The notes below the pieces were generated by a model. It was not told the origin of the DNA, ran no database searches, and was given only the letters and a program-made list of their open reading frames with translations. From Candidatus Poribacteria bacterium (GTDB lineage Bacteria; Poribacteria; WGA-4E; WGA-3G), in NCBI GenBank assembly GCA_965215265.1, contig OZ244048.1, forward strand, positions 1,632,001 to 1,696,000: 64,000 bases of DNA, given 5' to 3'. Positions 32,327 to 60,213 of the stretch are shown here, piece after piece (within the stretch, counting starts at the first letter, position 1; each line of letters begins with the position of its first letter). A program made the translations under genes and the position numbers.

Positions 32327-34858
32327 TTAAGGCGTTACAGCCCGCGCACACCGGAACCCGATGTAGGTGGTCGCGTCCGTAGGGGGCCTCATGAGGCGAT
32401 CGGCGACACGCAGGTTTTGGGCAATGTGGGGCCAACCCCCGCCACGCAACACGCGAGTGGACTTAACACTTGTAAAATCATTTACAATCAGATCCAGATT
32501 CGATATGGTGTTCACGTCACTCAGCGGATTCCGAGACGGCGAACTAAAATAGAAATCCGAATCATACGCATCAAGACACCACTCCCACACGTTCCCGGCC
32601 ATATCATACAGCCCATACCCGTTCGCCGCATAACTCCCTACAGGACGGGTGTCCCCTACATTCTGACCGTAGTTCGCCCGCGCAGAGGAGATTGTATTCC
32701 CCCACGGATACTTTAACCCTGATTTCCCACCCCGCGCTGCTTTCTCCCACTCCGCCTCCGTTGGAAGACGCTTACCTGCCCACGCAGAATATGCTATCGC
32801 CGCATACCACGACACATACCTCACAGGATGGTCCCCCTTACCCACTGGATAGTTATTACCTTCCCAACGTCTTAGGTACTTACCATTGTGGAAGGCATCC
32901 GGAATACGCCCCTTCTGCCACTCGGGATTCGCAAGCACGAAACGTTGATACTGCGCGTTCGTCACTTCATACTGGTCCATGTAGAACGCATCCACATACA
33001 CCGTATGCACAGGCTGCTCGTCAGCATCGGCATCGGCATCTTTGCTGCCCATCTGGAAGGCGCCTGCGGGGATGAGCACCATCCCTTCGGGGGCCGCCGG
33101 TGCGGTAGTGCGGGTGGCTGGCGGCGGGATTGGGGGCGTATTACCGGCCGTTCGCCGTCTCGGAAATGAAGGCGTTACAGCCCTCGCGCACCGGAACCCG
33201 GCGTCGTTGAACGCGTACGTTGGTGTATTCCTGAGGCGATCGGCGACACGCAGGTAGCGAGTATCATCGTCCCAACTCCCGCCACGCAACACGCGATAAT
33301 GCTTAACATGTGTAAATCCATCTACAATCTCATCCAGATTCGCGAGCATACTGCCAGACACACCACTCAGCGGATTACTAGACGGAGACTCTGAATAGAA
33401 AGCCGCATCATACGCATCAAGACACCACTCCCACACGTTGCCGGCCATGTCATACAGCCCATACCCGTTCGCAGCATAACTCCCCACAGCCGTTGTACCG
33501 CCTACATTACTAACGTAGTTCGCATGCGCAGAGGAGATTGTATTCCCCCACGGATACTTTAACCCTGATCGTCCACCGCGTGCCGCTTTCTCCCACTCCG
33601 CCTCCGTTGGAAGACGCTTACCTACCCACGCCGCATACGCCATCGCACCATACCACGATACATACGTCACAGGATGGTTCGCCTTACCCGAAGGATAGTT
33701 ATTACCTTCCCAGTGATCTAGGTAGGAACCATCGTGGAGATCGGCCGAAATACGCCCCTTTTGCCACTGCGGGTTCGCAAGCACAAACCGCTTGTATTCC
33801 AAATTCGTCACCTCGTGCATGTCCATGTAGAACGCGTCCACATGCACCGTCCGCACAAGCTGCTCGTCAGCATCGGCATCGGCATCTTTGCTGCCCATCT
33901 GGAAGTCGCCTGCGGGGATGAGCACCATCCCTTCGGGGGCCGACGGTGCGGTAGTGCGGGTGGCCGGCGGCGGGATTGGGCGCGTATTACCGGCCGTTCG
34001 CCGTTCCGGAAATGAAGGCGTTACAGCCCTCGCACACCGGAACCCGAAGTTGCTGAACGCGGACGTCGGGGGTGAATCCCCGCGGCGAAAAGCGGCACGC
34101 AGGAGCCGTGCAGGACCGTTCCAACTCCCGCCACGCAACACGCGAAGTGACCTAACATGTGTATAGTCATTTACAATCTCATCCAGATTCGATATGGTGT
34201 TCACGTCGCTCAGCGGATTACGAGCCGGCGAATTAAAATAGAAATCCGAATCATAAGCGTCCAGACACCACTCCCACACGTTCCCTGCCATGTCATATAG
34301 CCCATACCCGTTCGCAGCATAACTCCCCACAGCCGTTGTATAGTTTACATTCCTATCGTAGTTCGCATCGTTCGGCGTTATCGTGTCTCCCCGCGGGTAT
34401 TTCTTACCAACTAACCCACCGCGCGCCGCTTTTTCCCACTCCGCCTCCGTCGGTAGACGCTTACCTGTCCATGCCGCATACGCCATCGCACCATACCACG
34501 ACACATTTACCACCGGATGGTTCGCCTTACCTGCTGGATAGTTATTACCATTCCAATGTTTTAGGTAATTACCATTGTGGAGCGTGCGGGGGATGCGCGT
34601 CTTTTGCCATTGGGGGTTCGCCAGCACAAACCGCTTGTATTCCAGATTCGTCACCTCGTGCGTGTCCATGTAGAACGCGTCCACATGCACCGTGTGCACA
34701 GGCTGCTCGTTATTACCGGCATCGGCAGCCTCACTGCCCATCCGGAATGTGCCACCGGGGATGAGCACCATACCTTCGGGGGCCGCCGGTGCGGTAGTGC
34801 GGGTGGCCGGCGGCGGGATTGGGCGCGTATTACCGGCCGTTCGCCGTTTCGGAAATGA
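32327..34858 (-). repeat. Three tandem ~840-bp linker+FGE modules
   Basis: Units 32327-33166, 33167-34012, 34013-34858; internal units end GCTGTAACGCCT-TCA where the terminal unit has GCTGTAACGCCT-TAA. Confidence 0.9.
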
Positions 34859-35746
34859 ATACGCGTAAGGCTTCTGGGTTGTCTGACCTATTTTATTCAG
34901 TTTCCGCTGGTTAGATGAAAGGAACGTTGTCTCATTGAAAAGTTTTTGTGTTTTCTGTTGCGTCAGTGCAAAGACCTCGCGCCACGACAGGAATCTATCA
35001 GAATCTCTATCTGCCTCCGCAGTGAAACTATCGAGCAGTGACACAGTGAAATACCCACCGATATCGTCATTTCCCCAGGCGTATTCACCAGCCGACGCAG
35101 CCGTGATGTCCAGAAAACCGCGATGTTCTAAAAACAGATTTTTGGTGTACCGCCGCTCTCTTGACTGAACTCTGGCGTAACGGCGTGCAATCGTTGGTGG
35201 TGCTTGAACCCGATTACTACACGTGTCCGTAATCAGCAGCTTTAACCGGCCTGCTTTGTCCTTCAACACGTTACGAATTCCATCCCGGGAGACAAAATCG
35301 TTCGTGACTTCCGGGTCAAAGTTGAGAATGTGGGTGCCAAAAGCATCCATACTTCCGTGTCCACTATAGTAGATGAGAACTGTATCATCATCGTTCGGAT
35401 GCAACTCTCGGAGCCATTGACCCACCTGTTTCGCTTTGATAATCCCCTGCTTTTCTTCCTGAATGCCGCGTGAATCGGTGTTGGACAGCGTGAACTCCTT
35501 GACCATTCCGTCGATTTCGGTTTCCGATTTCATCAGAGTCACGTGCACCTCACAGTCTTCGGACACCTGCCTCAGCAAGGTTTGCATCTTACTCTCATTT
35601 TTCTCGACGCTCGTCCGGATATCTGCATCGTTTCCCAGGATTACCAGCAGCGCGTGCACCTTTTGTGCATCGGCTGAGGGGGCGGCAACAAGAAAGGAAA
35701 CCAAGACGAAGAACCCTATAGCGTGGACAACTTGTTTTGCAATCAT
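32327..35746 (-). CDS. Secreted caspase-like C14 domain + three tandem FGE-sulfatase (CLec-fold) domains; putative DGR target
   Basis: YYSGHG/LITDTC; 3x (FxMGS, RLPTEAEWEKAARGG, DMAGNVWEWC, RVLRGGxW...GFRCAR); no catalytic FGE cysteine pair. Confidence 0.88.
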   Translation of the reverse strand: MIAKQVVHAIGFFVLVSFLVAAPSADAQKVHALLVILGNDADIRTSVEKNESKMQTLLRQVSEDCEVHVTLMKSETEIDGMVKEFTLSNTDSRGIQEEKQGIIKAKQVGQWLRELHPNDDDTVLIYYSGHGSMDAFGTHILNFDPEVTNDFVSRDGIRNVLKDKAGRLKLLITDTCSNRVQAPPTIARRYARVQSRERRYTKNLFLEHRGFLDITAASAGEYAWGNDDIGGYFTVSLLDSFTAEADRDSDRFLSWREVFALTQQKTQKLFNETTFLSSNQRKLNKIGQTTQKPYAYSFPKRRTAGNTRPIPPPATRTTAPAAPEGMVLIPGGTFRMGSEAADAGNNEQPVHTVHVDAFYMDTHEVTNLEYKRFVLANPQWQKTRIPRTLHNGNYLKHWNGNNYPAGKANHPVVNVSWYGAMAYAAWTGKRLPTEAEWEKAARGGLVGKKYPRGDTITPNDANYDRNVNYTTAVGSYAANGYGLYDMAGNVWEWCLDAYDSDFYFNSPARNPLSDVNTISNLDEIVNDYTHVRSLRVLRGGSWNGPARLLRAAFRRGDSPPTSAFSNFGFRCARAVTPSFPERRTAGNTRPIPPPATRTTAPSAPEGMVLIPAGDFQMGSKDADADADEQLVRTVHVDAFYMDMHEVTNLEYKRFVLANPQWQKGRISADLHDGSYLDHWEGNNYPSGKANHPVTYVSWYGAMAYAAWVGKRLPTEAEWEKAARGGRSGLKYPWGNTISSAHANYVSNVGGTTAVGSYAANGYGLYDMAGNVWEWCLDAYDAAFYSESPSSNPLSGVSGSMLANLDEIVDGFTHVKHYRVLRGGSWDDDTRYLRVADRLRNTPTYAFNDAGFRCARAVTPSFPRRRTAGNTPPIPPPATRTTAPAAPEGMVLIPAGAFQMGSKDADADADEQPVHTVYVDAFYMDQYEVTNAQYQRFVLANPEWQKGRIPDAFHNGKYLRRWEGNNYPVGKGDHPVRYVSWYAAIAYSAWAGKRLPTEAEWEKAARGGKSGLKYPWGNTISSARANYGQNVGDTRPVGSYAANGYGLYDMAGNVWEWCLDAYDSDFYFSSPSRNPLSDVNTISNLDLIVNDFTSVKSTRVLRGGGWPHIAQNLRVADRLMRPPTDATTYIGFRCARAVTP

Positions 35747-35806
35747 CTCCTCCTCCTAAAAGACATTTCGCATTACCTACAACGAGTTAGATTTCTATGC
35801 TACACA

Positions 35807-35835
35807 ATTATAGAGTAAAAAACATTTTTAGTCAA
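35807..35835 (-). promoter_or_regulatory. Sigma-70 promoter of the caspase/FGE operon
   Basis: TTGACT-17 nt-TATAAT on the minus strand. Confidence 0.65.
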
Positions 35836-35854
35836 GAAAAATTTAAACCGTTGA

Positions 35855-35887
35855 TAGGCATACCGCACCAATCGCCCGGTATGCCTA
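35855..35887 (-). terminator. Hairpin downstream of the 2-hydroxyacid dehydrogenase gene
   Basis: TAGGCATACCG-11 nt-CGGTATGCCTA; no clear U tract. Confidence 0.45.
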
Positions 35888-35912
35888 CTGGTAAGTGCAG
35901 ATACTTCCGCTG

Positions 35913-36860
35913 TTAGAATCCGAGTTGTTTGTTGACAACATTCTGCAGTAGTTCTCCTTTGAGGTACCGTTCAAGATTATCAAGGAAAAATTCCGTTGCT
36001 CGGCGTGCCCGATGTTGGGAGCCGCCTGCAGCGTGTGGGGTTATGATGACGTTGTCTAAATCCCACAATGGGCTCTCTTTAGGCAGCGGTTCCACTTCTG
36101 TAACATCCAATCCTGCGCCTGCAATTTTGCCTGCCTGCAGCACCTCAATGAGGTCAGGTTCGTTGACAATGGGCCCGCGTGCGACGTTAATAAAAAAGGC
36201 TGTGGATTGCATGACACCTAGGTTGCTGGCGTTAATCAGGCCGCGTGTCTCCTCCGTTAATGGACACGCAATCATGACGATATCGACGCGGCTCATCGCG
36301 TCTGCGAGCTGCGCTATGGGCAGCAGTTCATCAACGTTGTCGGGTTTATCGGTGCGATAGGCATCGACTCCGATGACGTACATATCAAACCCTTTTGCGC
36401 GTTTAGTCATCTGCATGCCGATGCCTCCCAGGCCGACAATGCAGATTTTGAAACCGTCAATTTCAATCATAGGCGACTTGCTACCGCCCCACTGATGGTT
36501 ATCTTGGTTTCGCACGAAATGGTGGATACCGCGTGCCAAACCGAGGAGTAACGCGAATGCCTGGTCGGCGACGTGAGGTCCGTATAACCCAGCGGCGTTC
36601 GTTAATACGACATCACTGTTGCGGAGGGCCGGATACATGTGCCGGTCCATGCCCGCGCTGGATGCCTGAATCCATTTGATGTTAGGTAGGTGTGGGAAAA
36701 TCTCTTCGCTACAGAAGCCGTAGAAGACCTCGGCATCTTTCCCCTCTTCAACGAGTTCCTCGCGTGAACTAGGTGTGACGAAGGTGTGTTCATCGCCTGC
36801 AATGTCTTCTAAGCGTTTGAGGAGTTCGCCTTCTAAACGTCCTTGTAATAAAATTTTCAT
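35913..36860 (-). CDS. D-isomer-specific 2-hydroxyacid dehydrogenase
   Basis: VGLGGIG, INVARG, LDVTEVEPL, TPHAAG. Confidence 0.92.
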   Translation of the reverse strand: MKILLQGRLEGELLKRLEDIAGDEHTFVTPSSREELVEEGKDAEVFYGFCSEEIFPHLPNIKWIQASSAGMDRHMYPALRNSDVVLTNAAGLYGPHVADQAFALLLGLARGIHHFVRNQDNHQWGGSKSPMIEIDGFKICIVGLGGIGMQMTKRAKGFDMYVIGVDAYRTDKPDNVDELLPIAQLADAMSRVDIVMIACPLTEETRGLINASNLGVMQSTAFFINVARGPIVNEPDLIEVLQAGKIAGAGLDVTEVEPLPKESPLWDLDNVIITPHAAGGSQHRARRATEFFLDNLERYLKGELLQNVVNKQLGF

Positions 36861-36948
36861 AAATTCATGTCCCTTTCTAATCTCATATTGGTAGTTTTCA
36901 CGGATGGATTGTCGTCAGGAACGTCCTGTGCTTTTCCATCCTTCCTTT

Positions 36949-37848
36949 CTATTCCTGCCATGGTGGGGTTTCTGGTAACAATTCCTGAAAGGTGCTCAGC
37001 AGTTGTTCCGCGTAGGGACCTGCGTATTGTTGGTTAAAAAATAGATGCATGGCTTCGTCAAGGAACTGTGCCCAGGAGGTATCTTCGGCACCAGGGTTGA
37101 CAGGAAAAAATAGAGCCCCTACGTCGCGTGCTGCTTTTAAGTCGCCGGGCGAATCTCCGAGCATCAAGACGTGGTTTTCAGGGTATCTATCTTTCGTGGT
37201 AATAGTCAGATGTTCTGTTTTACTTCCCATTTCCTGTCCGGCGATGAGCGCGACGTACGAGTCGAGGCGGTGTTCAGCCCATTCGCGTCTGAGTGCCTCA
37301 TCCGGCGTAGCAGAAACGACGATGACATCTGCTTTACCTTGGAGGCTTTGCAGCGTTTCGTGCACGCCGGGAAACGGGGGCAGGTTGTAGACAATCTCTG
37401 CAACGCTTTCGTTCACGCCGAGGCTCCATTCCATAACCTGACTCAGTTCGTCTCGTCTTTCACCGGTTGCAGTGTCAATCGCTTGTTGAAGGGCGGGGTT
37501 GCCGAGTTTGGTTTCCGTTTCCGTCCATTCCCGCAAGTGAGGGAGTTCTGGTACGTTCACACCCATTTTCTGGACGAGGGGCATTTCACGTAAGAAATCA
37601 CACGAGAGCAGGATTGCTTTAAACCGGTTGGTGCCACGTGTCGTGGAGTAGAGATTGACAAAATCCCACACCTGATGCACCTGTCGGGAAATAGAGGCGA
37701 GCCCGAAATGTTTAACTAGGTTGACGCTGAAACAGTCGTTGTGTTTTACCTCCATGCTGTTGAAAACACAACCGTCAGAATCAATTCCGACGAAAAAGTC
37801 GTGTTGGGGTTGAAAGGCGTGTAGTGCTTGTTGTGGTTCGTGAGCCAC
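36949..37848 (-). CDS. HAD-family hydrolase
   Basis: GIDSDGCVF motif I, VVSAT motif II, GDSPGD motif IV. Confidence 0.85.
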   Translation of the reverse strand: MAHEPQQALHAFQPQHDFFVGIDSDGCVFNSMEVKHNDCFSVNLVKHFGLASISRQVHQVWDFVNLYSTTRGTNRFKAILLSCDFLREMPLVQKMGVNVPELPHLREWTETETKLGNPALQQAIDTATGERRDELSQVMEWSLGVNESVAEIVYNLPPFPGVHETLQSLQGKADVIVVSATPDEALRREWAEHRLDSYVALIAGQEMGSKTEHLTITTKDRYPENHVLMLGDSPGDLKAARDVGALFFPVNPGAEDTSWAQFLDEAMHLFFNQQYAGPYAEQLLSTFQELLPETPPWQE

Positions 37849-37874
37849 TCTTTTCCTCCTTTGTGCTGCTCAAA

Positions 37875-39338
37875 TTATTCGACAATGACTTCTGGGCGGC
37901 CGTCTAACATCCATTCGGTGTGGAATACGGTCGGTTCACCATCTTTCCCGAGTACGGGGTTTCCATTTCGATCGAGTTTATGGTAGGTATGCGCGCCGAA
38001 GTAATCACGCATTGCCTGAATCAGATTCGCCGAAAGTCTACCGCTGCGGTAACTGTCGAAATAGGCAAGGGCGGAGCTGAACGCCGGTATCGGGATGCCG
38101 AGTTGCGTCGCAGTGGCGATGACATGCCGCCAGTGCGGCTGCGCGTTCTCGATGACTTCACGGAAATAGTCATCGAGCAACAGGTTCGGCAAAGCGCTGT
38201 TTCTCTCAAATGCTTCCGCGATGCGATGCAAGAATTTCGCGCGGATGATACAGCCGCCCCGCCATCCTAAACTAATGCTACCGAGGTTCAAGTCCCAATC
38301 AAACTCCCGGCTCGCTTCACGCATCAAGGCGAACCCTTGTGCATAAGAGCAGATCTTGGCGGCGTAAAGCGCGTCGTGAATCGCTTTGAGGAATGCATCA
38401 CGGTCGCCTTGGTATATGCCACTGGGGCCCTTGATAATTTGTGATGCATCTACCCGTTCGTTTTTAATCGCGGAGATACAGCGTGCAAAAACTGCTTCAG
38501 CAATAGTCGGTGCGGCGATACCGAGGTCGAGGGCGGAAATGCTCGTCCATTTACCCGTGCCTTTCTGCCCAGCCCCATCTAGCACAACATCAACGAAAGG
38601 GGTGCCGCTTGCATCTGATTGGGTGAAGATGTCAGCGGTAATTTCAATGAGGTAGGAATTCAGTTCACCGCGATTCCATTGGCTGAAAACTTCGTGCATC
38701 TCAGGTGCGTTCATCCCCAATGTATTTTGCATCAGTGCGTATGCTTCGCAGATGAGTTGCATATCGCCGTATTCGATGCCGTTATGCACCATTTTGACGT
38801 AATGCCCCGCACCGTTGGGACCGATATAAGAACAGCACGGTACACCATCCACCTGCGCTGCAATCTGCGTAAAGATCGGCTCAACCAGGGCGTAAGCCTC
38901 TAGTGAACCGCCCGGCATCATTGCCGGTCCCTTGAGGGCCCCTTCCTCTCCACCGGAGATTCCAGTGCCAATGAAGAGGATATCGTGTTCAGCAAGTTGT
39001 GCATGGCGGCGCATTGTATCCATGAAATTGGAATTGCCACCATCAATAATCAGATCGCCTTTTGAGAGGTGGGGTATTAATTGTTCGATAAATCCGTCAA
39101 CAGGTTCCCCCGCCTTGACCATTAAAATAATCTTGCGCGGTGTTTTCAATTTCGCAATCAGTTCTGAAATAGAATGCGCGCCTATGATATTTTTTTGCTT
39201 CGCGGCACCTGTGATGAAATCGTCAACTCTTGACACGGTGCGATTGAAGACTGCAACGTCGAACCCTCTGCTCTCTATGTTAAGCGCCAGGTTCTCTCCC
39301 ATGACTGCCAATCCGATAAGTCCGATATCTGCTGCCAA
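37875..39338 (-). CDS. gnd: 6-phosphogluconate dehydrogenase (NADP, decarboxylating)
   Basis: GLAVMG, VKMVHNGIEYGDMQ, QKGTGKW, QAMRDYFGAHTY. Confidence 0.96.
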   Translation of the reverse strand: MAADIGLIGLAVMGENLALNIESRGFDVAVFNRTVSRVDDFITGAAKQKNIIGAHSISELIAKLKTPRKIILMVKAGEPVDGFIEQLIPHLSKGDLIIDGGNSNFMDTMRRHAQLAEHDILFIGTGISGGEEGALKGPAMMPGGSLEAYALVEPIFTQIAAQVDGVPCCSYIGPNGAGHYVKMVHNGIEYGDMQLICEAYALMQNTLGMNAPEMHEVFSQWNRGELNSYLIEITADIFTQSDASGTPFVDVVLDGAGQKGTGKWTSISALDLGIAAPTIAEAVFARCISAIKNERVDASQIIKGPSGIYQGDRDAFLKAIHDALYAAKICSYAQGFALMREASREFDWDLNLGSISLGWRGGCIIRAKFLHRIAEAFERNSALPNLLLDDYFREVIENAQPHWRHVIATATQLGIPIPAFSSALAYFDSYRSGRLSANLIQAMRDYFGAHTYHKLDRNGNPVLGKDGEPTVFHTEWMLDGRPEVIVE

Positions 39339-39372
39339 ATTTGTGTTCCTCCGATTATTTTTGATTTGTTTG

Positions 39373-39401
39373 ATTGTATAATAGTTGTGTGATTATGTCA
39401 A
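39373..39401 (-). promoter_or_regulatory. Sigma-70 promoter for gnd
   Basis: TTGACA-17 nt-TACAAT on the minus strand. Confidence 0.7.
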
Positions 39402-39479
39402 CCAAAAAAAGCAGGTATATTTGTGTTCTAAAACTGTCTAAAGTGGTATTAGCTGCTGCTGGTAACTCAAAAGATGAAT

Positions 39480-39507
39480 TTGACAAAAGCGTAAAACCGG
39501 GTATAAT
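39480..39507 (+). promoter_or_regulatory. Sigma-70 promoter for the SDR gene
   Basis: TTGACA-16 nt-TATAAT. Confidence 0.7.
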
Positions 39508-39650
39508 TAAACTTAACGAAGGTTAAATTTCTTACGATAAAGCGGATTGCTAGTAAGCTTTGGGCTATTCACGCAATTAAAAGACGAGAAGTTAACAGAC
39601 CCTCTGTTTAAGCGGGGATCGGAATTATACACAATAAGAGGAAAGCTTTA

Positions 39651-40424
39651 ATGGTACTCAAAGATCGCGTCAGCATCGTGACAGGTGGTAGTTCAGGCAT
39701 CGGGCGCGGAATCGCGCTTGAATTTGCACGCGAGGGTGCGCGTGTTATCATCGCGGATAAGCAGGAGGCACCGCTTCAAGGTAAATATCACGAAATGGAT
39801 GTTACAACGCCAACCGTTGCAGAAATTGAGAAACTGGGGGCGGAAGGAAGATTCATCCAAACCGATGTCGCCGATGAATCACAAGTAGCAGAAATGATTC
39901 AGCAGACCGTCCAACACTTCGGCGGTGTGGACATTCTGGTTAATAACGCCGGTATCCATATCCCTGGTGGCATACAAGCCATCTCGATTGCGGATTGGGA
40001 CCTAGTAGTTCGTGTTAACCTCCGTGGGGTTTTTGTGGCAACTAAACTCGTCATCCCCCATTTGAAAGCATCTAAATTTGGAAGAATTATCCAGATTGCG
40101 TCTGTGCATGCCTACGGTGGCGGGGCGGGTCCTGCGTACGCTCCGGCGAAAGCAGGGGTTATCAACCTTGTTCGCGATACTGCGTTAGAATTGGGACAAT
40201 TCGGGATCACTGTCAATGCTATCTGCCCTGGTTATATCGAGACAGCCATTCAAGACTACCTCACCCCGGAACAGATTGCGGAAGCGTTGGAGAAGACCGC
40301 TCTGCCACGTTTTGGACTGCCGAGAGACATCGGGCGGGCAGCGGTCTTCCTCGCGTCCGACGATGCAGAATGGATTACCGGTGCTTCCTTATTGGTTGAT
40401 GGTGGTTTTGCTGCTGGGATTTAG
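39651..40424 (+). CDS. SDR family oxidoreductase
   Basis: TGGSSGIG, NNAG, YAPAK. Confidence 0.93.
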   Translation: MVLKDRVSIVTGGSSGIGRGIALEFAREGARVIIADKQEAPLQGKYHEMDVTTPTVAEIEKLGAEGRFIQTDVADESQVAEMIQQTVQHFGGVDILVNNAGIHIPGGIQAISIADWDLVVRVNLRGVFVATKLVIPHLKASKFGRIIQIASVHAYGGGAGPAYAPAKAGVINLVRDTALELGQFGITVNAICPGYIETAIQDYLTPEQIAEALEKTALPRFGLPRDIGRAAVFLASDDAEWITGASLLVDGGFAAGI

Positions 40425-40559
40425 GGGGACGTGCTATCCGCTATCTATGATGCGCGATGGTTGCGAACATCACTAAACGTCTTTTGCGGATTTACGTCAA
40501 ATTCCCTATACCTTTCAATATCCTAACATCTTAATTGAAAACATCTTTGCCTAGCAAAG

Positions 40560-42344: not shown

Positions 42345-42352
42345 AGGAGAAT

Positions 42353-47211: not shown

Positions 47212-47212
47212 C

Positions 47213-47710: not shown

Positions 47711-47727
47711 AAGATTGGAGTGGATTT

Positions 47728-48321: not shown

Positions 48322-48323
48322 AG

Positions 48324-48682: not shown

Positions 48683-48693
48683 GGGGAACTCCG

Positions 48694-49281
48694 ATGCAAC
48701 AGGTTCTTCAAGATGCCGAATCCAGGATGAAGAAAACAGTGGAGTCAACAGCGACAAAACTCTCGCACGTACAGACAGGACGTGCTACCTCTGCTCTTCT
48801 GGACCAGGTCACGGTCAATTACTATGGAAGTAAAAGCCCCTTGAATCAGGTAGGTACAGTCACCACACCGGAGCCACGTCTACTTGTTATTCAACCGTGG
48901 GACAAAACGTTAATCAAAGAAGTTGAGAAAGCGATTGCGCTTTCTGATTTGGGCTTCTCAACCAGCAACGATGGAAACGTCGTCCGAATCTTAGTGCCTG
49001 AGTTGACAACGGAACGCCGCACTGAACTCACCAAGGTCGTGCGTAAGTTAGCTGAAGAAGGGCGCGTCGCCATCCGGAACATTCGCCGAGATGCAAACGA
49101 AGCTATACGCAAGCTGGAAGGCGCAAACTCAAGCGGAAGCGGCAGAAAAAGTAGGGGCCGCAGCGGCGATAGGAAGAGTGGGAGATCCGATGCTGACCCT
49201 GTGCAACAGCTTACTGATAATTACATAGAGCAGATTAACCAACTTACCACATCTAAGGAATCAGAGTTGTTGGAAAATTAG
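48694..49281 (+). CDS. frr: Ribosome recycling factor
   Basis: TGRA, IQPWD, PELTTERR, RVAIRNIRRDAN. Confidence 0.95.
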   Translation: MQQVLQDAESRMKKTVESTATKLSHVQTGRATSALLDQVTVNYYGSKSPLNQVGTVTTPEPRLLVIQPWDKTLIKEVEKAIALSDLGFSTSNDGNVVRILVPELTTERRTELTKVVRKLAEEGRVAIRNIRRDANEAIRKLEGANSSGSGRKSRGRSGDRKSGRSDADPVQQLTDNYIEQINQLTTSKESELLEN

Positions 49282-49291
49282 AGGAACGCAA

Positions 49292-50224: not shown

Positions 50225-50336
50225 CACGTCACAAGTTGCTGTAATCAACACCTTAGCACAAATCTCGTTCTTTCGTCTACAGGAGCCCGTTAAAGGCTGC
50301 CCACTGGGCGTTGACGGTACGGAGATATACAAAAAG
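50205..50336. repeat. Family A arms at the cdsA-dxr junction
   Basis: Overlaps the cdsA stop; ends GGTACGGAGATATACAAAAAGAT-ATG. Confidence 0.8.
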
Positions 50337-50338
50337 AT

Positions 50339-51526: not shown

Positions 51527-51681
51527 TTGATGTAATGTTTAGTCCTTTTTTCGTCTACAGGAGCCCAATACGGATTCATGTGGCAGGATAGGTATTCTTT
51601 GTCTCATGGCAAGAAAACCGAACCTGCGAACACACAAGTTATCAATACATAAATGTTGATGGTACGGAGATATACAAGAAA
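51479..51681. repeat. Family A/B mosaic at the dxr-rseP junction
   Basis: Encodes the dxr C-terminus; ends GGTACGGAGATATACAAGAAA-ATG. Confidence 0.8.
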
Positions 51682-53490
51682 ATGGAATTTCTACAGTCAT
51701 TTTTTTCAATCCTTCCAAATATTAAAACAGTGCTACTTGCAATTATCCCGCTCGGTTTCCTTATTTTTATACATGAACTCGGCCATTTTTATGCAGCGAA
51801 ACGGGCTGGAATTAAAGTCAACACCTTCTCCCTCGGTTTCGGTCCAAAACTAATCGGGTTTCAGCGCGGGGTAGGTTTTACAACACTCATAGACGGATTA
51901 CGCTTATCCCGTGCGGCTAAAGCTGCCGAGGAGGCAGCAGGATCCGGGGAATCTACGAATCCGGGTGCGGATGTCTCTTCTCTATCTACCACCGACACCG
52001 AGTACCGGCTCTCTTTGTTGCCGTTTGGCGGGTATGTTCAAATGGAAGGTGAAAATCCGAAGGAGCAGACTGGTGCTGTAGGCGAATTTGGGAGTGCTTC
52101 GCTTGGCAACCGGGCTTTTGTTGTTGCTGCGGGCCCCGCCGTGAACTTGCTGTTCGGGGTTTTAGCATTTTGGCTGGTTTTCGCTATTGGCTTGAATCAG
52201 CGTTCGGTTACTTTTATTGAAGGATTAACAGGTAAGCACTTAGAGGGAAAAAAAGAGGGACCTCAATTAGGAGCGGTTGCTCCTGAAGGGCCCGCTGCGC
52301 ACGGCGGATTGGAGCCCGGCGATATCATTCTGTCCGTAAACGACACACAAATTGAAAACTGGGCTGCATTTCACATTAAAATTTACACAAGCCCCGGACG
52401 AGCGTTAGAAATCGAAGTAGAACGCCAAGGCACTCGTCAAACCTTCACTGTCGTACCTAACATTGTACCAAGTGCAAGGGGAGATACCGGCGAACTGCAA
52501 GTCATTTCCAAAAGCGATATAATGGTAACGGATGTTGCCGCAGGGAGTTTAGCAGAACAGGCAGGTATCCAAGTAGGGGATAGAGTTGAGACGATTAACG
52601 GCGAAAAAATTTATAACGTTCCAGAATTTGGTTCGGGAATTTGGGCAGCCGAAGCGATTTGGCTGTCTCAGCACTACCAGTCCCTTTACCGCTCAATTCA
52701 GCAGAATCCTAACGAGTTTCAACTCGGTATTCGCCGAGGCGAGACTGCAAAAGTTTTGAAAATGCCGGTCACTTGGGAACTCACGGCGGTGGTTCAACCC
52801 GATGCGGAAGTTGTTGGCTTGCAAAATGGGGACACGCTTCTCACCCTCAATGGAAATGCCGTGGATAGTGAGACGCTTTCAGCAGGCTTGAAAGCAGCGG
52901 CAAGCAAACCGATTGAATTGCGCATACGGCGAGGCAATTCAGAAAAAACGGTAACGCTATCTCCGAACGTAAAAGCGAGAGCTGAGAGTGCACAAGCAAC
53001 AAGCAGGCTATATGGATTCGGATGGACGACAACGCTCAGCGGAATCTCATTTGGGGAACCGCCGCGGGTCGTGCCAACCTATACTGTATTTACAGCGTTC
53101 GGAAAGGGACTTGAAACGTCATGGCTGACCGTTGCCTCCATCGGAAGAACCCTAAAGCAGCTAATCAATAGAGAAGTTTCGCCGAGGTATCTCACCGGAC
53201 CTATCGGCATAGCCAACGCGACAAGCCGGATGTTTAATTTCGGGTTCACGATTGCTCTGTTTTTTATTGGCTTTATTAGCATCAACCTCGCCATTGTGAA
53301 TTTGTTGCCAATTCCGATCGCCGACGGAGGGCATTTGCTATTTTTTGCGGTTGAGAAAATCCGAGGACGGCCGATAAGCCTCGAAAAACAGGCAATCGTC
53401 CAGCATGTAAGCATTATTCTCTTAATTGCCCTATTCCTGTATATCACTTGGTTTGATGGGCTCTCCTTAATTGATGACATCCGTAACTAA
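51682..53490 (+). CDS. rseP: RIP metalloprotease RseP with multiple PDZ domains
   Basis: HELGH, GGYV, AGPAVN, NLLPIPIADGG. Confidence 0.93.
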   Translation: MEFLQSFFSILPNIKTVLLAIIPLGFLIFIHELGHFYAAKRAGIKVNTFSLGFGPKLIGFQRGVGFTTLIDGLRLSRAAKAAEEAAGSGESTNPGADVSSLSTTDTEYRLSLLPFGGYVQMEGENPKEQTGAVGEFGSASLGNRAFVVAAGPAVNLLFGVLAFWLVFAIGLNQRSVTFIEGLTGKHLEGKKEGPQLGAVAPEGPAAHGGLEPGDIILSVNDTQIENWAAFHIKIYTSPGRALEIEVERQGTRQTFTVVPNIVPSARGDTGELQVISKSDIMVTDVAAGSLAEQAGIQVGDRVETINGEKIYNVPEFGSGIWAAEAIWLSQHYQSLYRSIQQNPNEFQLGIRRGETAKVLKMPVTWELTAVVQPDAEVVGLQNGDTLLTLNGNAVDSETLSAGLKAAASKPIELRIRRGNSEKTVTLSPNVKARAESAQATSRLYGFGWTTTLSGISFGEPPRVVPTYTVFTAFGKGLETSWLTVASIGRTLKQLINREVSPRYLTGPIGIANATSRMFNFGFTIALFFIGFISINLAIVNLLPIPIADGGHLLFFAVEKIRGRPISLEKQAIVQHVSIILLIALFLYITWFDGLSLIDDIRN

Positions 53491-53815
53491 TTTTCGTCTA
53501 CTGCAGCACAACAAAGGCTGCTGCAATGCTAAAATTTGTACAAATCTCGTTTTTTTCGTCTACAGGAGCCCGTTAAAGGCTGCTGTAATGTTAACCTTAG
53601 CACAAATCTCGTCGCCCGCCCACCCAAATCCTTTGATGTTATGATTCAATACATCGAAGGGCTCAGACGAGATTTACACAGTGATTAACACAACATCAGC
53701 CATTTAGGGGCTGCACCATACGAAAGAATTCGTATATCTCCGTACCATCAACGTCTATGTTTTGATAGTTCGTGTGTAAATCTCGTCGGAGCCTCTTGAT
53801 GTTTAGATTCAAAAA
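53490..53815. repeat. Family A array at the rseP-udg junction
   Basis: Two tandem left arms, centre, right arm, then a further left arm containing the candidate udg start. Confidence 0.85.
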
Positions 53816-54488
53816 AGAATACTTACAACTTCTTGCGACTGTGAGGGAATACGTGGAAGAACAACTTGAACTCGGTTTCATGGAGCTACAGGAGCCTAAA
53901 CAGGAATCTCCTTACGCTAACTTCGACCTGATCCAGTTAGATGCAGATGCTCAAAACTGCACCCGATGCGTTTTGCACGAAAGCCGAAACAGCGTCGTTT
54001 TCGGATTTGGAAATCCTAATGCTTCGCTGATGTTTGTCGGAGAAGCACCTGGGGCGGATGAAGACCGGCAAGGCGAACCTTTTGTCGGACGCGCCGGGCA
54101 ACTGCTGACCCGAATTATTGAGGCGATGAAGTTTACACGTGACAATGTTTACATCGCTAACGTGCTAAAATGCCGTCCACCGGGAAACAGAAATCCAGGC
54201 CCGGATGAGATTGAAATGTGTCGTCCATATTTGGAACGGCAGATAGAATTGATTCACCCCAAAGTGATTGTCGCACTCGGGAGTTTTGCAGCGAAGTTGT
54301 TAATTAATACGACTACAGGTATTTCAGCACTTCGCGGACAGTTTCATACGTACTCGAAAGCCGGAAAGCAGGAGAATGCACCACGCATCATGCCTACCTA
54401 TCATCCTGCATATCTGCTCCGGAATCCTAGTGCAAAACGCGACGTGTGGGACGATATGAAAAAGGTCTTAGATTTCTTAGAAAAATGA
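53799..54488 (+). CDS. Uracil-DNA glycosylase family 4 ([4Fe-4S])
   Basis: [29 protein letters not shown]; candidate start ATG lies in the centre of a repeat element. Confidence 0.92.
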
Positions 54489-56965
54489 GTTACGCCAACG
54501 TCGCTTTCCCGCTCGCCATCAATCAGCAGTTTACGTACGCCGTACCGTCGTATCTAGATGCAATAGTGCAACCCGGTGTCCGGGTACTGGCTCCCTTTCG
54601 GCGAAGTATTCAGGAAGGGGTTGTTGTTGAAAGGCTTGATGAAACTGAGCTTGCACCCAACAGAATCAAGCATATTTCCGATTGTCTGGATGAGGTACCG
54701 ATGTTCTCTACTGAGATGCTGACGCTCACAAAATGGATGGCTGACTACTACGTCTCTTCGTGGGGTAATGCACTTTTTTGTGCTGTACCTACCGCTATCC
54801 GCAGTCAGAAACAGCAGCGCGTGAAACTCCAACCGGAGCCTCCGGTGCCGAGGGGAAAAGTGCAAAAGGAAATTGTTGCACTTTTGGAAGCAGAAGGGGA
54901 GCTGTCGCCCAACCAACTCGCGAGGCGTGTCGGTGTCAGCTACTCGGATCTACGCCCCAAAATTTCTGCCCTACGTGAAAACGGGGTTGTGGATATTTAT
55001 GTCACGCACAAACCAAAAGCCACGGCACAAGTCACGACTGTTGCAACATTAGCGCTGCCTGCATCGGAAGTCGAGACAGAGATCGTTGAACTGAAAGATG
55101 CAGAAAACCGCCGGCGTGGTGCCTCCGCCAAACATGCTGAAATTCTGCAAATCTTACTTGACGAGAATGTTCCGTTAGCCACAACAGAACTCACAAAACG
55201 CGTCGGGGCTGGTGTTTCTCTGCTTCGAACGCTTGAAAGACGTGGATTCATCCGGATTACACGCGTCCCCTCGGTGCGGAACCCGCTGAGCTGCCAACCC
55301 GTGGCACCCACACAAGCGTATCCGTTAAATTCCGAACAGGCTGCAGCATTTACCGAAATCCAGAACGCACTCTCAACAAATATTTCTGCCTCTCAAAAGC
55401 CCCCGATTTTGCTGCTTCACGGCGTGACTGGCAGCGGCAAAACCGAGGTGTACATGCAGTCAATGGCACCGATACTGAAAACCGGTAAATCGGTTATCGT
55501 ATTGGTACCAGAAATTTCATTAACACCGCAAACGGCTTCGCGGTTTATCGGGCGTTTCGGCGACCGGGTTGCTGTGTTACACAGCCGATTGAGCAATGGT
55601 GAACGCTATGATGGGTGGCACCGCATTCAAAAAGGCGAAGCGACTATTGTTATCGGACCCCGCTCAGCAGTGTTTGCCCCGGTTAAGGAACTCGGCTTGT
55701 TAGTTATAGATGAAGAGCACTCGGATTCCTATAAATCGGATACTGCACCGAGATACCATGCGCGGGAAGTTGCACAGAAACGGAGTGAGCTTGCAAACTG
55801 CGCGCTGCTGTTGGGTAGTGCCACCCCTTCCATTGAGAGTTTTCATCGTGCAAAGAATGGGACCTACAACTTACTCAGCTTGCCCTCCCGGGTATTAAAT
55901 AGAGCAATGCCGGCCGTTCATATCGTTGATATGCGCGCCGAATTGAAGCAGGGCAATCGCACTATCTTCTCCGATGCACTCCGAAACGGCATCGTAGAAC
56001 GGCTTGTAAAACGGGAGCAAATTATCCTTTTTCTCAATAGACGGGGGCATTCAACTTATGTGTTTTGTCGAACTTGCGGTTATGTAGAGCGGTGCAACAG
56101 TTGCTCTATTTCGTTGACGTTCCACTTTGAAACCAAAAAACTGGTTTGCCATCATTGCGGACATAAACGGAATACACATTCTACATGTCCACAGTGTAGC
56201 AGTCCTGCCATCCGTTATTTTGGACTCGGCACAGAAGCTATAGAACAAGAGGTCAGAAAATCGTTTCCGGGGGCAAACGTCAAGCGCTTTGATGCAGATT
56301 CTACAGCGCGGAAGAACGCACATCAACAGATATTAGAAGCATTTCAGCAGCAGCAGCTTGACATTTTAATTGGTACTCAGATGGTAGCAAAGGGGTTAGA
56401 TTTCCCCAATGTCACACTTGTCGGAGTCATCGCCGCAGATACTGCCTTAAATTTGCCTGATTTCCGGGCAGGTGAGCAGACCTTTAGCCTGCTGACACAA
56501 GTCGCCGGGCGCTCCGGACGGGCGGATATACCAGGGGAGGTTATCTTTCAAACCTATATGCCCGAACACTACTGCATTGCAGCAGCACAAAAGCATGACT
56601 ATCTCGAGTTTTATGAGAAAGAGGTGGAGGCACGCAACGCGCTGCGTTACCCCCCCTTTTCGCAGGTGGCAAGACTGCTGTTGCGTGGCCCGGATGAGCC
56701 AGCGGTTATTGAAGCCGCCCATGCCCTACACACGAAACTCCAACTTTGGCTAACTGACGAAGTTCTCGACATCGATATTCTCGGACCTGCACCTGCTCCG
56801 CTCTCAAAAATTGAAGGGAAATTTCGGTGGCATTTTTTGCTTCGAAGTGAAGCGGACGGAAAAATTAGTCAACTCCTTCACCACATCACGAACGACCCTA
56901 TACCTTCTATTAAATCCAACGCTATTGAACTCATTATAGACATAAATCCAACGCATACTTTGTAG
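54485..56965 (+). CDS. priA: Primosomal protein N' helicase
   Basis: GVTGSGKT, DEEH, Cys-rich Zn motifs, GTQMVAKG; ATGA overlap with udg. Confidence 0.97.
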   Translation: MSYANVAFPLAINQQFTYAVPSYLDAIVQPGVRVLAPFRRSIQEGVVVERLDETELAPNRIKHISDCLDEVPMFSTEMLTLTKWMADYYVSSWGNALFCAVPTAIRSQKQQRVKLQPEPPVPRGKVQKEIVALLEAEGELSPNQLARRVGVSYSDLRPKISALRENGVVDIYVTHKPKATAQVTTVATLALPASEVETEIVELKDAENRRRGASAKHAEILQILLDENVPLATTELTKRVGAGVSLLRTLERRGFIRITRVPSVRNPLSCQPVAPTQAYPLNSEQAAAFTEIQNALSTNISASQKPPILLLHGVTGSGKTEVYMQSMAPILKTGKSVIVLVPEISLTPQTASRFIGRFGDRVAVLHSRLSNGERYDGWHRIQKGEATIVIGPRSAVFAPVKELGLLVIDEEHSDSYKSDTAPRYHAREVAQKRSELANCALLLGSATPSIESFHRAKNGTYNLLSLPSRVLNRAMPAVHIVDMRAELKQGNRTIFSDALRNGIVERLVKREQIILFLNRRGHSTYVFCRTCGYVERCNSCSISLTFHFETKKLVCHHCGHKRNTHSTCPQCSSPAIRYFGLGTEAIEQEVRKSFPGANVKRFDADSTARKNAHQQILEAFQQQQLDILIGTQMVAKGLDFPNVTLVGVIAADTALNLPDFRAGEQTFSLLTQVAGRSGRADIPGEVIFQTYMPEHYCIAAAQKHDYLEFYEKEVEARNALRYPPFSQVARLLLRGPDEPAVIEAAHALHTKLQLWLTDEVLDIDILGPAPAPLSKIEGKFRWHFLLRSEADGKISQLLHHITNDPIPSIKSNAIELIIDINPTHTL

Positions 56966-57022
56966 CATAGAGACTTGTCTCGCACTTTCTTATTGCATAA
57001 AACCTATTGAAAGGAATCATAG

Positions 57023-57976
57023 ATGGGCACCCGGATATTTGACAAACTTAATGACACAACACAACTTGCACGAAGCCCAATTCTCGTTTTCGCTGCCGAC
57101 CCGCTGGCATCCGCTGGTATTAAAGGATTGGGACAGGTTCAACATCCTAAACCGCACTACCGGACGCATGCAGAGTTTTTGCAGCTACAACGTGACCTGG
57201 TTGCAGATGGACAATTGGATGGGCTGCTGATGACACCGGCTGATGCTGAAACGCTGGCCCTTGAAGAAAACCTGTTTGAAGATACACATATCACGCCAAT
57301 TGTTCGGATGAATTCGGAGACAGCTATCTGGAATCCGCGTTTTGGTGTATATACCGCGCGCCCGTCAATGCCCTTTCAAACGGTTTTTCCGGAAGACATG
57401 CAGCGGTATTGTGAAGCACTCATCGGCCCTGCTTTGGAATGCCGGGTTAACCTCGGCCTGTATTCTATTACACTCAACAACGACCCGATTGTTGATGAGC
57501 GGATGCTGCAGGCGTATATCCAATTCGCGCATGTTGTCGGTGAAATTGAGGGGTTTGACCATCTACTAGAGGTTTTTCTACCTAATGTTAAATTGCCGGG
57601 GATGGATGAAGAGAAACGTGGAATGTACGTTGCAGACTCTATCGTGCGAACGATGAGCTACCTACGGAAACATCAACGCCCACGCTTTATCAAAACCGCA
57701 TACACCACTGCTGAAGTATGGTGCGAGTTGTGTGAATTTGATAAAACCTTGGTGATTGGTGCCTTGGGCGGTCCGCGGCAAAACGCACGAAGCACGTTTG
57801 CCCTCGCACATAACGTCATCCAGAACGGCGGGCGCGCCATCTTATTCGGGCGTACCATTTTTGGTGAAGCAGCACCAGTCGGGTTCGTGCAATGCATCCG
57901 TCGCGTGCTTGACGGTGAGGCAGAGCCGCAGGCAGCGCACACCGAATATCAGAAAATGTTGCGGATGGGCCAGTAA
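57023..57976 (+). CDS. Class I aldolase-like TIM-barrel protein
   Basis: FIKTAY candidate Schiff-base Lys, ALGG, GRAILFGRTIF. Confidence 0.55.
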   Translation: MGTRIFDKLNDTTQLARSPILVFAADPLASAGIKGLGQVQHPKPHYRTHAEFLQLQRDLVADGQLDGLLMTPADAETLALEENLFEDTHITPIVRMNSETAIWNPRFGVYTARPSMPFQTVFPEDMQRYCEALIGPALECRVNLGLYSITLNNDPIVDERMLQAYIQFAHVVGEIEGFDHLLEVFLPNVKLPGMDEEKRGMYVADSIVRTMSYLRKHQRPRFIKTAYTTAEVWCELCEFDKTLVIGALGGPRQNARSTFALAHNVIQNGGRAILFGRTIFGEAAPVGFVQCIRRVLDGEAEPQAAHTEYQKMLRMGQ

Positions 57977-58111
57977 CACAGTTTGCCTAAGTCTGCTACT
58001 CCCCACCCGCCCAACTTCCGATGATGGCTGAAGAACCCGTTTTTTTGCCCAAGCGTCTGTCATGTCCCGTGTTGCATGTCTATGTCAGCCCCCGCCCGTA
58101 TCCTAAAATCT

Positions 58112-58152
58112 GTTGGCAGGTTTGGCAGCCGGACCCTGCCAAACCTGCCAAC
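58112..58152. terminator. Perfect 17-bp inverted repeat between convergent genes
   Basis: GTTGGCAGGTTTGGCAG-7 nt-CTGCCAAACCTGCCAAC. Confidence 0.6.
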
Positions 58153-58196
58153 CAATTCTAACGCTTTTTTTAACTAATAGTAAAAAAATCGTAGAG

Positions 58197-58239
58197 GTCC
58201 GAGCTGCATGCAGCTCGGACGGGGTAAAGGGGTAAAGAT
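58197..58239 (-). other. Post-stop motif + perfect 24-bp palindrome (putative DGR IMH/hairpin)
   Basis: TAA-ATCTTTACCCCTTTACCCC then GTCCGAGCTGCATGCAGCTCGGAC. Confidence 0.7.
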
Positions 58240-60213
58240 TTAAGGAGTAACAGCCCTCGCGCACCGGAACCCGACACCGCCGTACGTGAACGTCGGGGTA
58301 AGCCTGCTGCGACCGGCGACACGCAGTTTTCGTGTAGGACTGTTCCAACTACCGCCACGCAACACGCGAGAGGAAGAGATCATAGCGGTCATATAGCGAT
58401 TTACAATCTCAGCCACATTCACGAGCGTACTGCCAGACACACCACTCAGCGGATTCCGAGACGGAGACTCAGAATAGAAATCCGCATCATACGCATCAAG
58501 ACACCACTCGTAAACGTTGCCTGCCATATCATACAGCCCATACCCGTTCGCAGCATAACTCCCCACAGCCGTTGTATTGCCTACATTCCTACCGTGGTTG
58601 GCGTTATTAGGCGTTATCGTGTCCCCCCACGGGTATTTCTTACCAACTAACCCACCGCGTGCCGCTTTCTCCCACTCCGCCTCCGTTGGCAGACGCTTAC
58701 CTGCCCACACGGAATATGCCATCGCACCATACCACGACACATACCTCACGGGATGGTTCGCCTTACCCACTGGATAGTTATTACCTTCCCAAAGCATTAG
58801 GTACTTACCATTGTGGAAGGCATCCGGAATCTGCGTCTTCTGCCACTCGGGGTTCGCCAGCAGAAAACTTTTATACTCGGCGTTCGTCACTTCGTGCATA
58901 TCCATATAGAACGCGTCCACATACACCGTCCGCACAGGCTGCTCGTCACCATCGGCCTCGGCATCGTTGCTGCCCATCTGGAACTCGCCCGCGGGGATGA
59001 GTGCCATCCCTGCAGGCACCGATGTTGCACTCACACAACGAAACCCGGTGAAGCTTGCCGTGAACGTCGGCTCCCTCTTGAACCTATCGGCGACGCGCTG
59101 GTAACGCACATCAGCACGCCAATTACCACCCCGCAACACCCGCATTGACTTCACATTTACGCCAATGTAGTCCGATACAATCTCAGCCACATTCGCGAGC
59201 ATACTACCAGACACACCACACAGCGGATTCCGAGACGGAGACTTTTTATAAAATTTCTTATCCCACGCATCAAGACACCACTCGTGAACGTTCCCGGCCA
59301 TGTCGAACAGCCCATACCCGTTCGCAGCATAACTCCCCACAGAAGTCGTATCGTCTACATTCCTATCGTAGTTCGCATCGTTCGGCGTTATCATGTCTCC
59401 CCACGGATACTTCAGACCTGCCTCCCCACCGCGTGCCGCTTTCTCCCATTCCGCCTCCGTTGGCAGACGCTTCCCTGCCCACGCAGCATAAGCCATCGCC
59501 GCATGCCACGACACATACCTCACAGGATGGTCCCCCTTACCCACTGGATAGTTATTACCGTCCCAACGGTTTAGGTAAGAACCAAAGTGGAAGGCATCCG
59601 AAATACGCCCCTTCTGCCACTCGGGATTCGCCAGCACAAAAGTTTGATACTCAGCGTTCGTCACTTCGTGCGTATCCATATAGAACGCGTCCACATGCAC
59701 CGTATGCACAGGCTGCTCGTTATCCCGCGCATCAGCATCGTTGCTGCCCATCTGGAAGGTGCCGCCGGGGATGAGCACCATCCCTGCAGGCGCAGACGCG
59801 GGAGCCGCAGGCGCAGACGCGGGAGCCGCAGGCGCAGACGCTGCACCGTTAAACCCCGCCGCTACTAACACCACGTCTCCTATATCCACTACACTATTCC
59901 CGTTCATATCTGCCGAACTGTTACCGCGGGTTCCCAGGCGCGCCGCTACCAATGCCAAATCCACTATATCCACACGGCCATCACCATTCACATCCGCATC
60001 ACCTTTGACAGCCGAAAGCATGCCGACATCCGCAGGCAGGCTTACCCCTTGCGCACACACAGCGCCAACACTCCCTAAACTCAAAACTATACACGCCAAT
60101 ATTGCTAACATCACTGACACGCTGTTATTAGTCATTACAGTCCTCCAAACCTTTGACACTTTTTTAGCGGACATTACAGTCCTCCAAACCTTTGACACTT
60201 TTTTATTACACAT
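58240..60213 (-). CDS. Secreted dockerin-like + two FGE-sulfatase (CLec-fold) domains; putative DGR target
   Basis: Signal peptide; DVNGDGRVDIVD and DMNGNSVVDIGD loops; ASAPAAP linker repeats; 2 FGE domains, terminal one ending GFRCARAVTP. Confidence 0.88.
   Translation of the reverse strand: MCNKKVSKVWRTVMSAKKVSKVWRTVMTNNSVSVMLAILACIVLSLGSVGAVCAQGVSLPADVGMLSAVKGDADVNGDGRVDIVDLALVAARLGTRGNSSADMNGNSVVDIGDVVLVAAGFNGAASAPAAPASAPAAPASAPAGMVLIPGGTFQMGSNDADARDNEQPVHTVHVDAFYMDTHEVTNAEYQTFVLANPEWQKGRISDAFHFGSYLNRWDGNNYPVGKGDHPVRYVSWHAAMAYAAWAGKRLPTEAEWEKAARGGEAGLKYPWGDMITPNDANYDRNVDDTTSVGSYAANGYGLFDMAGNVHEWCLDAWDKKFYKKSPSRNPLCGVSGSMLANVAEIVSDYIGVNVKSMRVLRGGNWRADVRYQRVADRFKREPTFTASFTGFRCVSATSVPAGMALIPAGEFQMGSNDAEADGDEQPVRTVYVDAFYMDMHEVTNAEYKSFLLANPEWQKTQIPDAFHNGKYLMLWEGNNYPVGKANHPVRYVSWYGAMAYSVWAGKRLPTEAEWEKAARGGLVGKKYPWGDTITPNNANHGRNVGNTTAVGSYAANGYGLYDMAGNVYEWCLDAYDADFYSESPSRNPLSGVSGSTLVNVAEIVNRYMTAMISSSRVLRGGSWNSPTRKLRVAGRSRLTPTFTYGGVGFRCARAVTP
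60133..60213 (-). repeat. 39-bp tandem duplication copying RBS+ATG
   Basis: AAAAAAGTGTCAAAGGTTTGGAGGACTGTAATG x2; in-frame ATGs at 60213, 60174 and 60135. Confidence 0.85.

Follow-up and report, generated by a model that had tools for sequence, protein, structure and literature searches.

In the present study we analysed a stretch of 64,000 nucleotides (nt) from the chromosome of a Candidatus Poribacteria bacterium (hereafter the window; positions 1,632,001-1,696,000 of a single 4.83-Mb contig, in an assembly estimated to be 95% complete), in which two distant genes, gene 1 and gene 2, carry five FGE-type lectin domains, named A1, A2 and A3 in gene 1 and B1 and B2 in gene 2. We propose that the last ~111 nt of A1, A2, A3 and B2 are very probably the variable regions (VRs) of one chromosomal diversity-generating retroelement (DGR) located 243-269 kb away. 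The cassette of this element and its template repeat (TR) are present in the genome, the differences between copies and template are adenine-specific, and the copies have been rewritten independently of each other. The fifth stretch, at the end of B1, is, as judged from its letters, a frozen fossil VR which is no longer rewritten.

The retroelement cassette and the adenine-specific family

The five variable stretches are the 3' ends of five PF03781 domains, all on the minus strand and ~111 nt each. In a codon alignment of the five domains, the pairwise differences of the scaffold amount to 0.16/0.15/0.28 at codon positions 1/2/3, and this pattern is reversed in the last 7 codons before GFRC, with values of 0.53/0.51/0.11. 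Leaving out the GCG/ACG codon, 23 of the 25 variable codons end in C, the exceptions being GGT in B2 and GCA in B1. A BLAST search of the genome with the window copies found no sixth copy inside the window.

A textbook DGR cassette formed by Avd, reverse transcriptase (RT) and TR is localised at 1,419.4-1,421.2 kb of the genome, on the same chromosome and 211 kb before the window's first base, at a distance of 243 kb from gene 1 (A3) and 269 kb from gene 2 (B2). Its order is the VR-bearing end of an FGE-domain gene, the Avd gene, the RT gene and the non-coding TR. The RT, with 354 aa, is matched by PF00078 (85 bits; 1,420,096-1,420,737), the sole RT match in the genome, and carries YVDD together with IGNLTSQ; the motif [ILV]GxxxSQ marks DGR RTs. 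Among solved structures its closest relative is 8ub7 (E 9.6e-63), a reverse transcriptase of 328 aa which we take to be the BPP-1 enzyme, group II intron RTs following far behind at 1e-20, and none of the NCBIfam models of other RT classes reaches its cut-off on this protein. The open reading frame directly upstream, of 118 aa, is identified as Avd by the equivalog model NF033474 (120.2 bits, cut-off 80) and by PF22296 (83 bits, cut-off 40). The TR is full of AAC/AAT codons, reads ...NNNTRNLRAANRNRNTPTNTNNNNGFRC and allows 18 variable codons, that is ~10^17.6 protein variants per VR. The cognate VR adjoining the cassette differs from it by 16 A mismatches and by 0 non-A mismatches.

Searching the whole genome with the TR, 37 VR-like copies were found by BLAST in 26 stop-to-stop reading frames, a count which leaves out two B1-type copies and several fragments below the TR search; 13 of the 37 are internal to multi-domain genes. 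Over the TR core compared (35 A and 76 non-A positions) the column entropy of the 37 copies is 1.68 bits at the TR adenines and 0.37 bits elsewhere (p 3.6e-17), and the mismatches of all five window copies fall preferentially on adenines (Fisher p 3.7e-12 to 2.7e-5). The cognate VR and three more copies have 0 non-A mismatches and four others 1-2, none of these eight lying in the window. Taken as TR/VR pairs the window copies fit in part: in TR positions 60-112 (31 non-A positions), where 25 of the 37 copies have at most one non-A mismatch, A1 and A2 have 0, B2 has 1 and A3 has 2, while B1, with 19 non-A mismatches, does not fit.

The variable letters of these copies have a history of their own. 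At the A-sites A1, A2, A3 and B2 have at most 0.51 of their letters in common with any other copy, the background being 0.33 +/- 0.10 (276 terminal pairs), and B2 is 0.23-0.49 identical to its closest paralogs. The non-A positions of these four VRs are more alike (0.89-0.96) than their scaffolds (0.78-0.82), as rewriting from a common template predicts. The A-sites of B1 are 0.82-0.91 identical to those of three paralogs, in step with a scaffold identity of 0.87-0.92, and its 3' end has diverged; B1 would therefore be an old VR, not rewritten since the duplication of those genes.

An alternative that needs no retroelement would have the binding loop of these paralogs shaped by ordinary positive selection and by gene conversion, given that lectin-like binding loops can be under diversifying selection and that FGE domains abound throughout the order, with 7-58 matches in each of the 41 genomes searched, most of which lack this RT. 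However, selection leaves unexplained why third positions stay fixed (0.07-0.11, compared with 0.28 for the scaffold), and it accounts neither for the adenines standing in a neighbouring non-coding template at just the variable positions nor for the cassette itself, so that we regard this alternative as extremely improbable.

An earlier note, made from the letters of the window, had pointed to these five stretches as varying at codon positions 1-2 with position 3 kept; its coordinates and strand hold, the codons it quoted are found exactly as given in the alignment of the five domains, and its count of 23 C-ending codons out of 25 was reproduced. It had also inferred a template and an RT elsewhere in the genome, to be sought as a non-coding copy differing almost only at A beside a DGR-class RT and avd, and had spelled out part of the template: both genes stand next to the TR, and the predicted 30-mer occurs exactly once in the 4.83 Mb, inside the TR. 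The absence of a codon-position bias in the other paralogs had been named there as evidence against a DGR, and the bias extends over the 37 copies. Its reading of all five domains as probable targets is supported for A1, A2, A3 and B2, the A-site content of which is unique, and does not hold for B1, a fossil with 82-91% of its A-sites as in its paralogs.

Several features of the cassette's surroundings and of single copies were also observed. The target next to the RT (1416737-1419196 of this genome, G000; locus L045) is read as two frames of 431 and 380 aa, split by a stop 179 nt after the first VR-like copy; these could be two separate genes or a single two-domain gene that is broken. The cognate VR (1419060; about 470-600 of locus L001) and another of the best-matching VRs, at 1795829, have one codon more than the TR within the run of four AAC, which could reflect slippage of the RT or a recent loss of AAC in the TR. 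Two VR copies with 0 non-A mismatches, near 4150245 (minus strand) and 4795100 (plus strand), contain indels whose length is not a multiple of three (a loss of 5 nt in four places; a gain of 2 nt), and are either broken VRs or a consensus over a mixed population. A repeat of ~120 nt is found directly 3' of the TR (1421275-1421395; 2680-2800 of L001) and at ~22 other sites of the genome, none of them in the window; many genes with a VR have it on their 3' side as well. A promoter-like TTGACA/TATAAA closes the repeat, and a putative transposase gene of the YhgA-like type (PF04754, 96 bits) comes after it; the repeat may have helped to spread the 3' ends of the targets.

Terminal copies, hairpins and the age of the last rewriting

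The position of a copy within its gene appears to matter. In three paralogous three-domain genes elsewhere in the genome, with scaffolds 91-97% identical, the A-site letters of the first and middle domains are identical or nearly so (1.00) and those of the last domains are only 0.26-0.34 identical. Considering all pairs with a scaffold identity of at least 0.87, which are non-independent, the A-site identity is 0.14-0.63 in 33 terminal-terminal pairs and 0.79-1.00 in 8 internal-internal pairs. After the last variable codon come 16 GC-rich nt common to the TR and the VRs, and then a 14-nt continuation which the VRs, A1, A2, A3 and B2 included, have in common and the TR lacks. Furthermore, a hairpin is located at a fixed offset, ~21 nt after the stop, with a perfect stem of at least 7 bp in 13 of the 23 terminal copies scored and in none of the 13 internal ones; the stem exists in two covarying versions, ATC/GAT and AGC/GCT, which differ from each other by a compensatory pair. 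The stem of B2 is the longest in the window. According to the account in PMC3240598, a hairpin after the VR is required for efficient homing in phage BPP-1.

Following the known mechanism of DGRs, from which the steps are taken, the TR would be transcribed and copied into cDNA by Avd and the RT, with misreading of the adenines, and the cDNA would then replace the VR, anchored at the common GC-rich 3' end and, in terminal VRs, helped by the hairpin ~21 nt after the stop. Codons of the type AAY would thus become NNY, changing the binding face with the fold being kept. On these signals B2 is probably still a competent target, A3 is a doubtful one, and A1 and A2, internal and devoid of a hairpin, may or may not be.

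Analysing the non-A mismatches it is possible to see six states (TR positions 17, 23, 26, 53, 55 and 59; five of them synonymous) which are common to about a dozen copies, A2, A3 and B2 among them. In terminal copies the A-sites are scrambled to the same extent in the 5' part (0.30) and in the 3' part (0.32), and therefore a template with those states must once have written these copies. A 5' half that was never replaced, which was considered as the cause of the common mismatches, is ruled out by the same scrambling. T55 and C59, found in A2, A3 and B2, are also the states of the TRs of orthologous DGRs from two other genera. We thus suggest that the six old states reflect the drift of one TR, an older allele of which probably wrote the 5' halves of A2, A3 and B2, and since these states have been kept, about a dozen copies would have escaped any full-length rewriting after the change of the TR.

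The same copies, with exactly six common states and unrelated A-sites in both halves, show that such a template existed, and it might be held that a second one, with T17, G23, T26, T53, T55 and C59, still writes A2, A3 and B2 from an unassembled replicon or region, for which an assembly estimated at 95% complete leaves room, or from a co-resident phage. Nevertheless, the 4.83-Mb contig contains one A-rich copy and one RT, and with T55 and C59 found in the TRs of two related genera the drift of a single TR suffices; a second template is in our opinion improbable.

A more serious alternative is that all five window VRs were written in the past and are now ordinary fixed paralogs. In order to look at present variation, contigs of four sequencing runs (X3-X6) of one study, possibly the assembly's own source, were aligned to window positions 30500-37500. 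Over the VRs of A3 and A1 they show 0 differences in 4 of 4 runs, and over the VR of A2 exact contigs with 0 differences are found in 2 of 4 runs, none being listed for X5 and X6, to which we attach no meaning; contigs hide rare variants. Further short contigs differ from the A2 VR at 24 positions and were not taken as alleles; they join an A3-like scaffold at 94% identity and are best read as paralogs or as another strain.

Besides these identical contigs, several observations weigh against the four copies being VRs of the distant element. The reading has to suppose that the same RT would act in trans on two remote genes. The number of non-A mismatches to today's TR is 4 in A1, 7 in A2, 8 in B2 and 10 in A3, to be compared with 0-2 in eight other copies, and the text of the survey in PMC5758913 indicates that remote targets are usually accepted only with A-to-N differences, with minor exceptions. 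The signals of a target are incomplete, with A1, A2 and B1 lacking a downstream hairpin and that of A3 decayed. The two genes are absent from the same-genus relative G001, where only the flanking genes match (77%); gene 2 is missing beside the neighbour gene in the 10 loci compared of 13 metagenome loci (67-91% aa identity); gene 1 is alone in its 90% cluster, and no record exists for four start variants of gene 2.

The mismatches, the six old states and the missing or decayed hairpins, together with the frozen state of internal copies that have close paralogs (the 8 pairs mentioned above) and the identity of the contigs in up to four runs, all speak for fossil targets. On the other hand, B2 keeps a perfect hairpin and the conserved 3' end of the family, and the near absence of non-A mismatches from TR positions 60-112 in A1, A2 and B2 makes possible a partial rewriting anchored at the 3' end; variable 5' boundaries are described for DGRs in the text of PMC5758913. 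Moreover, an internal copy elsewhere in the genome (1795016) has only 1 non-A mismatch, and contigs cannot reveal rare variants. We consider the fossil alternative quite conceivable, short of an even chance, and retain the distant DGR as the source of the four VRs, with a partial, 3'-anchored rewriting of the window copies as a possibility.

The window genes, their products and their relatives

The features of the window are collected in Table 1. Gene 1 is matched by PF03781 (FGE-sulfatase) in 3 stretches (E 3e-193) and its residues 110-267 by PF00656 (Peptidase_C14; 38.7 bits, cut-off 21.4); the motifs SGHG and DTCS, read by eye in this caspase-like domain, are presumably the His/Cys dyad of Peptidase_C14. 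In gene 2, PF03781 matches 2 stretches (E 8e-119) and residues 83-127 form a type I dockerin (PF00404; 29.7 bits, cut-off 22.9). Immediately after gene 1 follow two further minus-strand genes, its probable operon partners; the first of them has no Pfam match.

Table 1. Genes, variable regions and hairpins in the window (positions counted from the first base of the window)
Feature	Position	Strand	Remarks
Gene 1, 1139 aa	32327..35746	-	Leader, caspase-like Peptidase_C14, three tandem FGE-type lectin domains (A1, A2, A3); Pfam
A1 VR (internal)	34030..34143	-	24 A and 4 non-A mismatches to TR, one extra codon
A2 VR (internal)	33184..33294	-	16 A and 7 non-A mismatches to TR
A3 VR (terminal)	32344..32454	-	21 A and 10 non-A mismatches to TR
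Decayed hairpin after A3	32294..32313	-	6 of 8 stem pairs by eye; not formed in minimum-energy fold
Two genes directly downstream of gene 1	29564..32304	-	409 aa; 504 aa, Peptidase_C14 and DUF4384; 4-nt overlap
Gene 2, up to 666 aa, start uncertain	58240..60240	-	Leader, dockerin, two FGE-type lectin domains (B1, B2); Pfam
B1 fossil VR (internal)	59031..59141	-	24 A and 19 non-A mismatches; 3' end diverged
B2 VR (terminal)	58257..58367	-	19 A and 8 non-A mismatches to TR
B2 hairpin	58197..58220	-	Perfect 10-bp stem, 4-nt loop; usual distance after stop

Aligning B2 with the FGE enzymes 6muj, 2q17, 5nxl and 6s07, the first Cys of their LCHxSYC motif has no counterpart in B2, which has a 3-residue gap there, and T stands opposite the second, so that the cysteine pair of the active site, which we take to be the catalytic one, is lacking. 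The structure of TvpA (2y3c) is a sequence match of the same domain (E 2e-12). The missing cysteines together with this match suggest that the domains are binders of the TvpA kind, and the window proteins would thus be binding proteins and not FGE enzymes. Both products look secreted, on the basis of hydrophobic N-terminal leaders read by eye and of the dockerin match, and the dockerin of gene 2 may serve for docking to a cohesin protein. The earlier note had spoken of a dispersed family of secreted binding proteins; its dispersal is borne out by the 37 copies in 26 frames, and its secretion is suggested by the leaders and the dockerin. Among nine other members of the family that were scanned, four have a dockerin, one a cohesin and a dockerin, one a C39-like peptidase, one a PA14 domain, and two no second domain. 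The member with the cohesin lies at 212,047-213,576 of the genome.

Orthologs of the RT were found in 2 of the 40 relatives searched, with identities of 83% (G004) and 79% (G024). The first has 26 VR-like matches to its own TR across the chromosome and the second, assembled in 390 contigs, has one; the same-genus genome G001 has no RT and no VR-like copies. A link between the number of FGE domains and the presence of the RT was considered and not retained: the genomes with RT have 58, 43 and 24 matches, but G002 has 40 without RT, and the relation is not clean.

Several short repeats were noticed as well. At the 5' end of gene 2 a 39-nt tandem repeat is present in 2.6 copies (60125-60227), each unit carrying GGAGG and ATG, and therefore the true start of the gene is uncertain and may vary. 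A 21-nt tandem repeat in 2.7 copies (59786-59841) codes for a linker rich in Ala and Pro which joins the dockerin of the same gene to its first FGE domain. Within 30968-31201 the contigs of runs X3-X6 show a spike of depth and many loose ends (at 30972-31021), and short T-rich tandem units lie elsewhere in the window (612-803 and 9189-9247); this looks like a small dispersed repeat of the genome. A scan of the window with Rfam gave no family at gathering score.

Known systems and meaning

Published DGRs already include remote targets of the FGE type, tandem FGE targets and targets fused to a caspase, and the mechanism is standard. The DGR of Treponema denticola with its FGE-type target TvpA is likewise chromosomal and not of a phage, with targets far from the RT; it has seven non-adjacent targets, the maximum given in the text of the survey in PMC5758913. 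In comparison with it, we find here 37 VR-like copies in 26 frames, many of which mismatch the TR at non-A positions, and targets fused to caspase-like, dockerin, cohesin, C39-like and PA14 modules. The count thus exceeds the survey's seven, although its supplementary tables may list larger sets. The same text describes, in category 'b' (FGE-sulfatase CLec1; Wu et al. 2018), one three-FGE gene in which all three domains are seemingly diversified, and states that internal VRs must keep the initiation of mutagenic homing (IMH) site inside the coding sequence. Gene 1 resembles that gene, having three FGE domains in tandem with a VR-like stretch closing each of them; however, in the close paralog sets of the present genome the internal copies are frozen and only the terminal ones are rewritten.

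The cyanobacterial DGRs, for which Vallota-Eastman et al. (2020, PMC7517822) give 76 remote CLec targets in 21 genomes, are similar in having remote families of CLec paralogs, caspase-type fusions (orthocaspase N-terminal domains) and a 'remnant' TR-VR homology, and transposases near the targets are mentioned in the same account. They differ in that, as far as the text of that paper goes, remote matches occur only near the 3' ends of genes, whereas 13 of our 37 copies are internal, and in that kinase fusions dominate there and dockerins here. Like the DGR of Bordetella phage BPP-1, the present one consists of Avd, RT and TR, with adenine-specific changes and a GC-rich 3' end followed by divergence. 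Many terminal copies, B2 among them, also have a hairpin like that of BPP-1, in which the structure of the stem and not its sequence is what matters (as described in PMC3240598); there it follows directly after the VR in a phage, and here ~21 nt after the stop in a cellular element with many targets in trans. DGRs acting in trans and an unequal activity of VRs within a locus are described in the text of PMC10907252. A full-text search of the literature found nothing linking DGRs with dockerin. Large metagenome surveys state, in the passages of PMC8144416 bearing on this point, that remote targets are missed, and therefore genomes like this one may be under-counted.

The analysis indicates that the sequence of a target is enough to recognise it as a distant target of a DGR, and that its template can be predicted exactly, letter by letter. 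What is useful here is that the family is large, that terminal and internal copies contrast with each other and that the targets can be dated: the paralogous multi-domain genes, in which only the terminal domain is rewritten, amount to a natural experiment on the choice of target, the covarying hairpin marks the live-looking targets, and the drift of the template leaves a relative date on the last rewriting of each. We tentatively advance, as a picture that may well prove too broad, that over 20 hypervariable lectin genes scattered over the genome are kept in play by this one DGR, many of them on a dockerin/cohesin scaffold of the cell surface and others fused to proteases, with targets chosen by position (last domain and hairpin) and dated by the drift of the template. 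If this were true, the protease fusions would include a secreted caspase-like enzyme with three variable heads, the product of gene 1, and if most of the 25 copies matching the TR in its 3' two-thirds were live, they would be the largest set of targets tied to one DGR. A large family of targets is conserved in at least one other genus, with 26 copies in G004.

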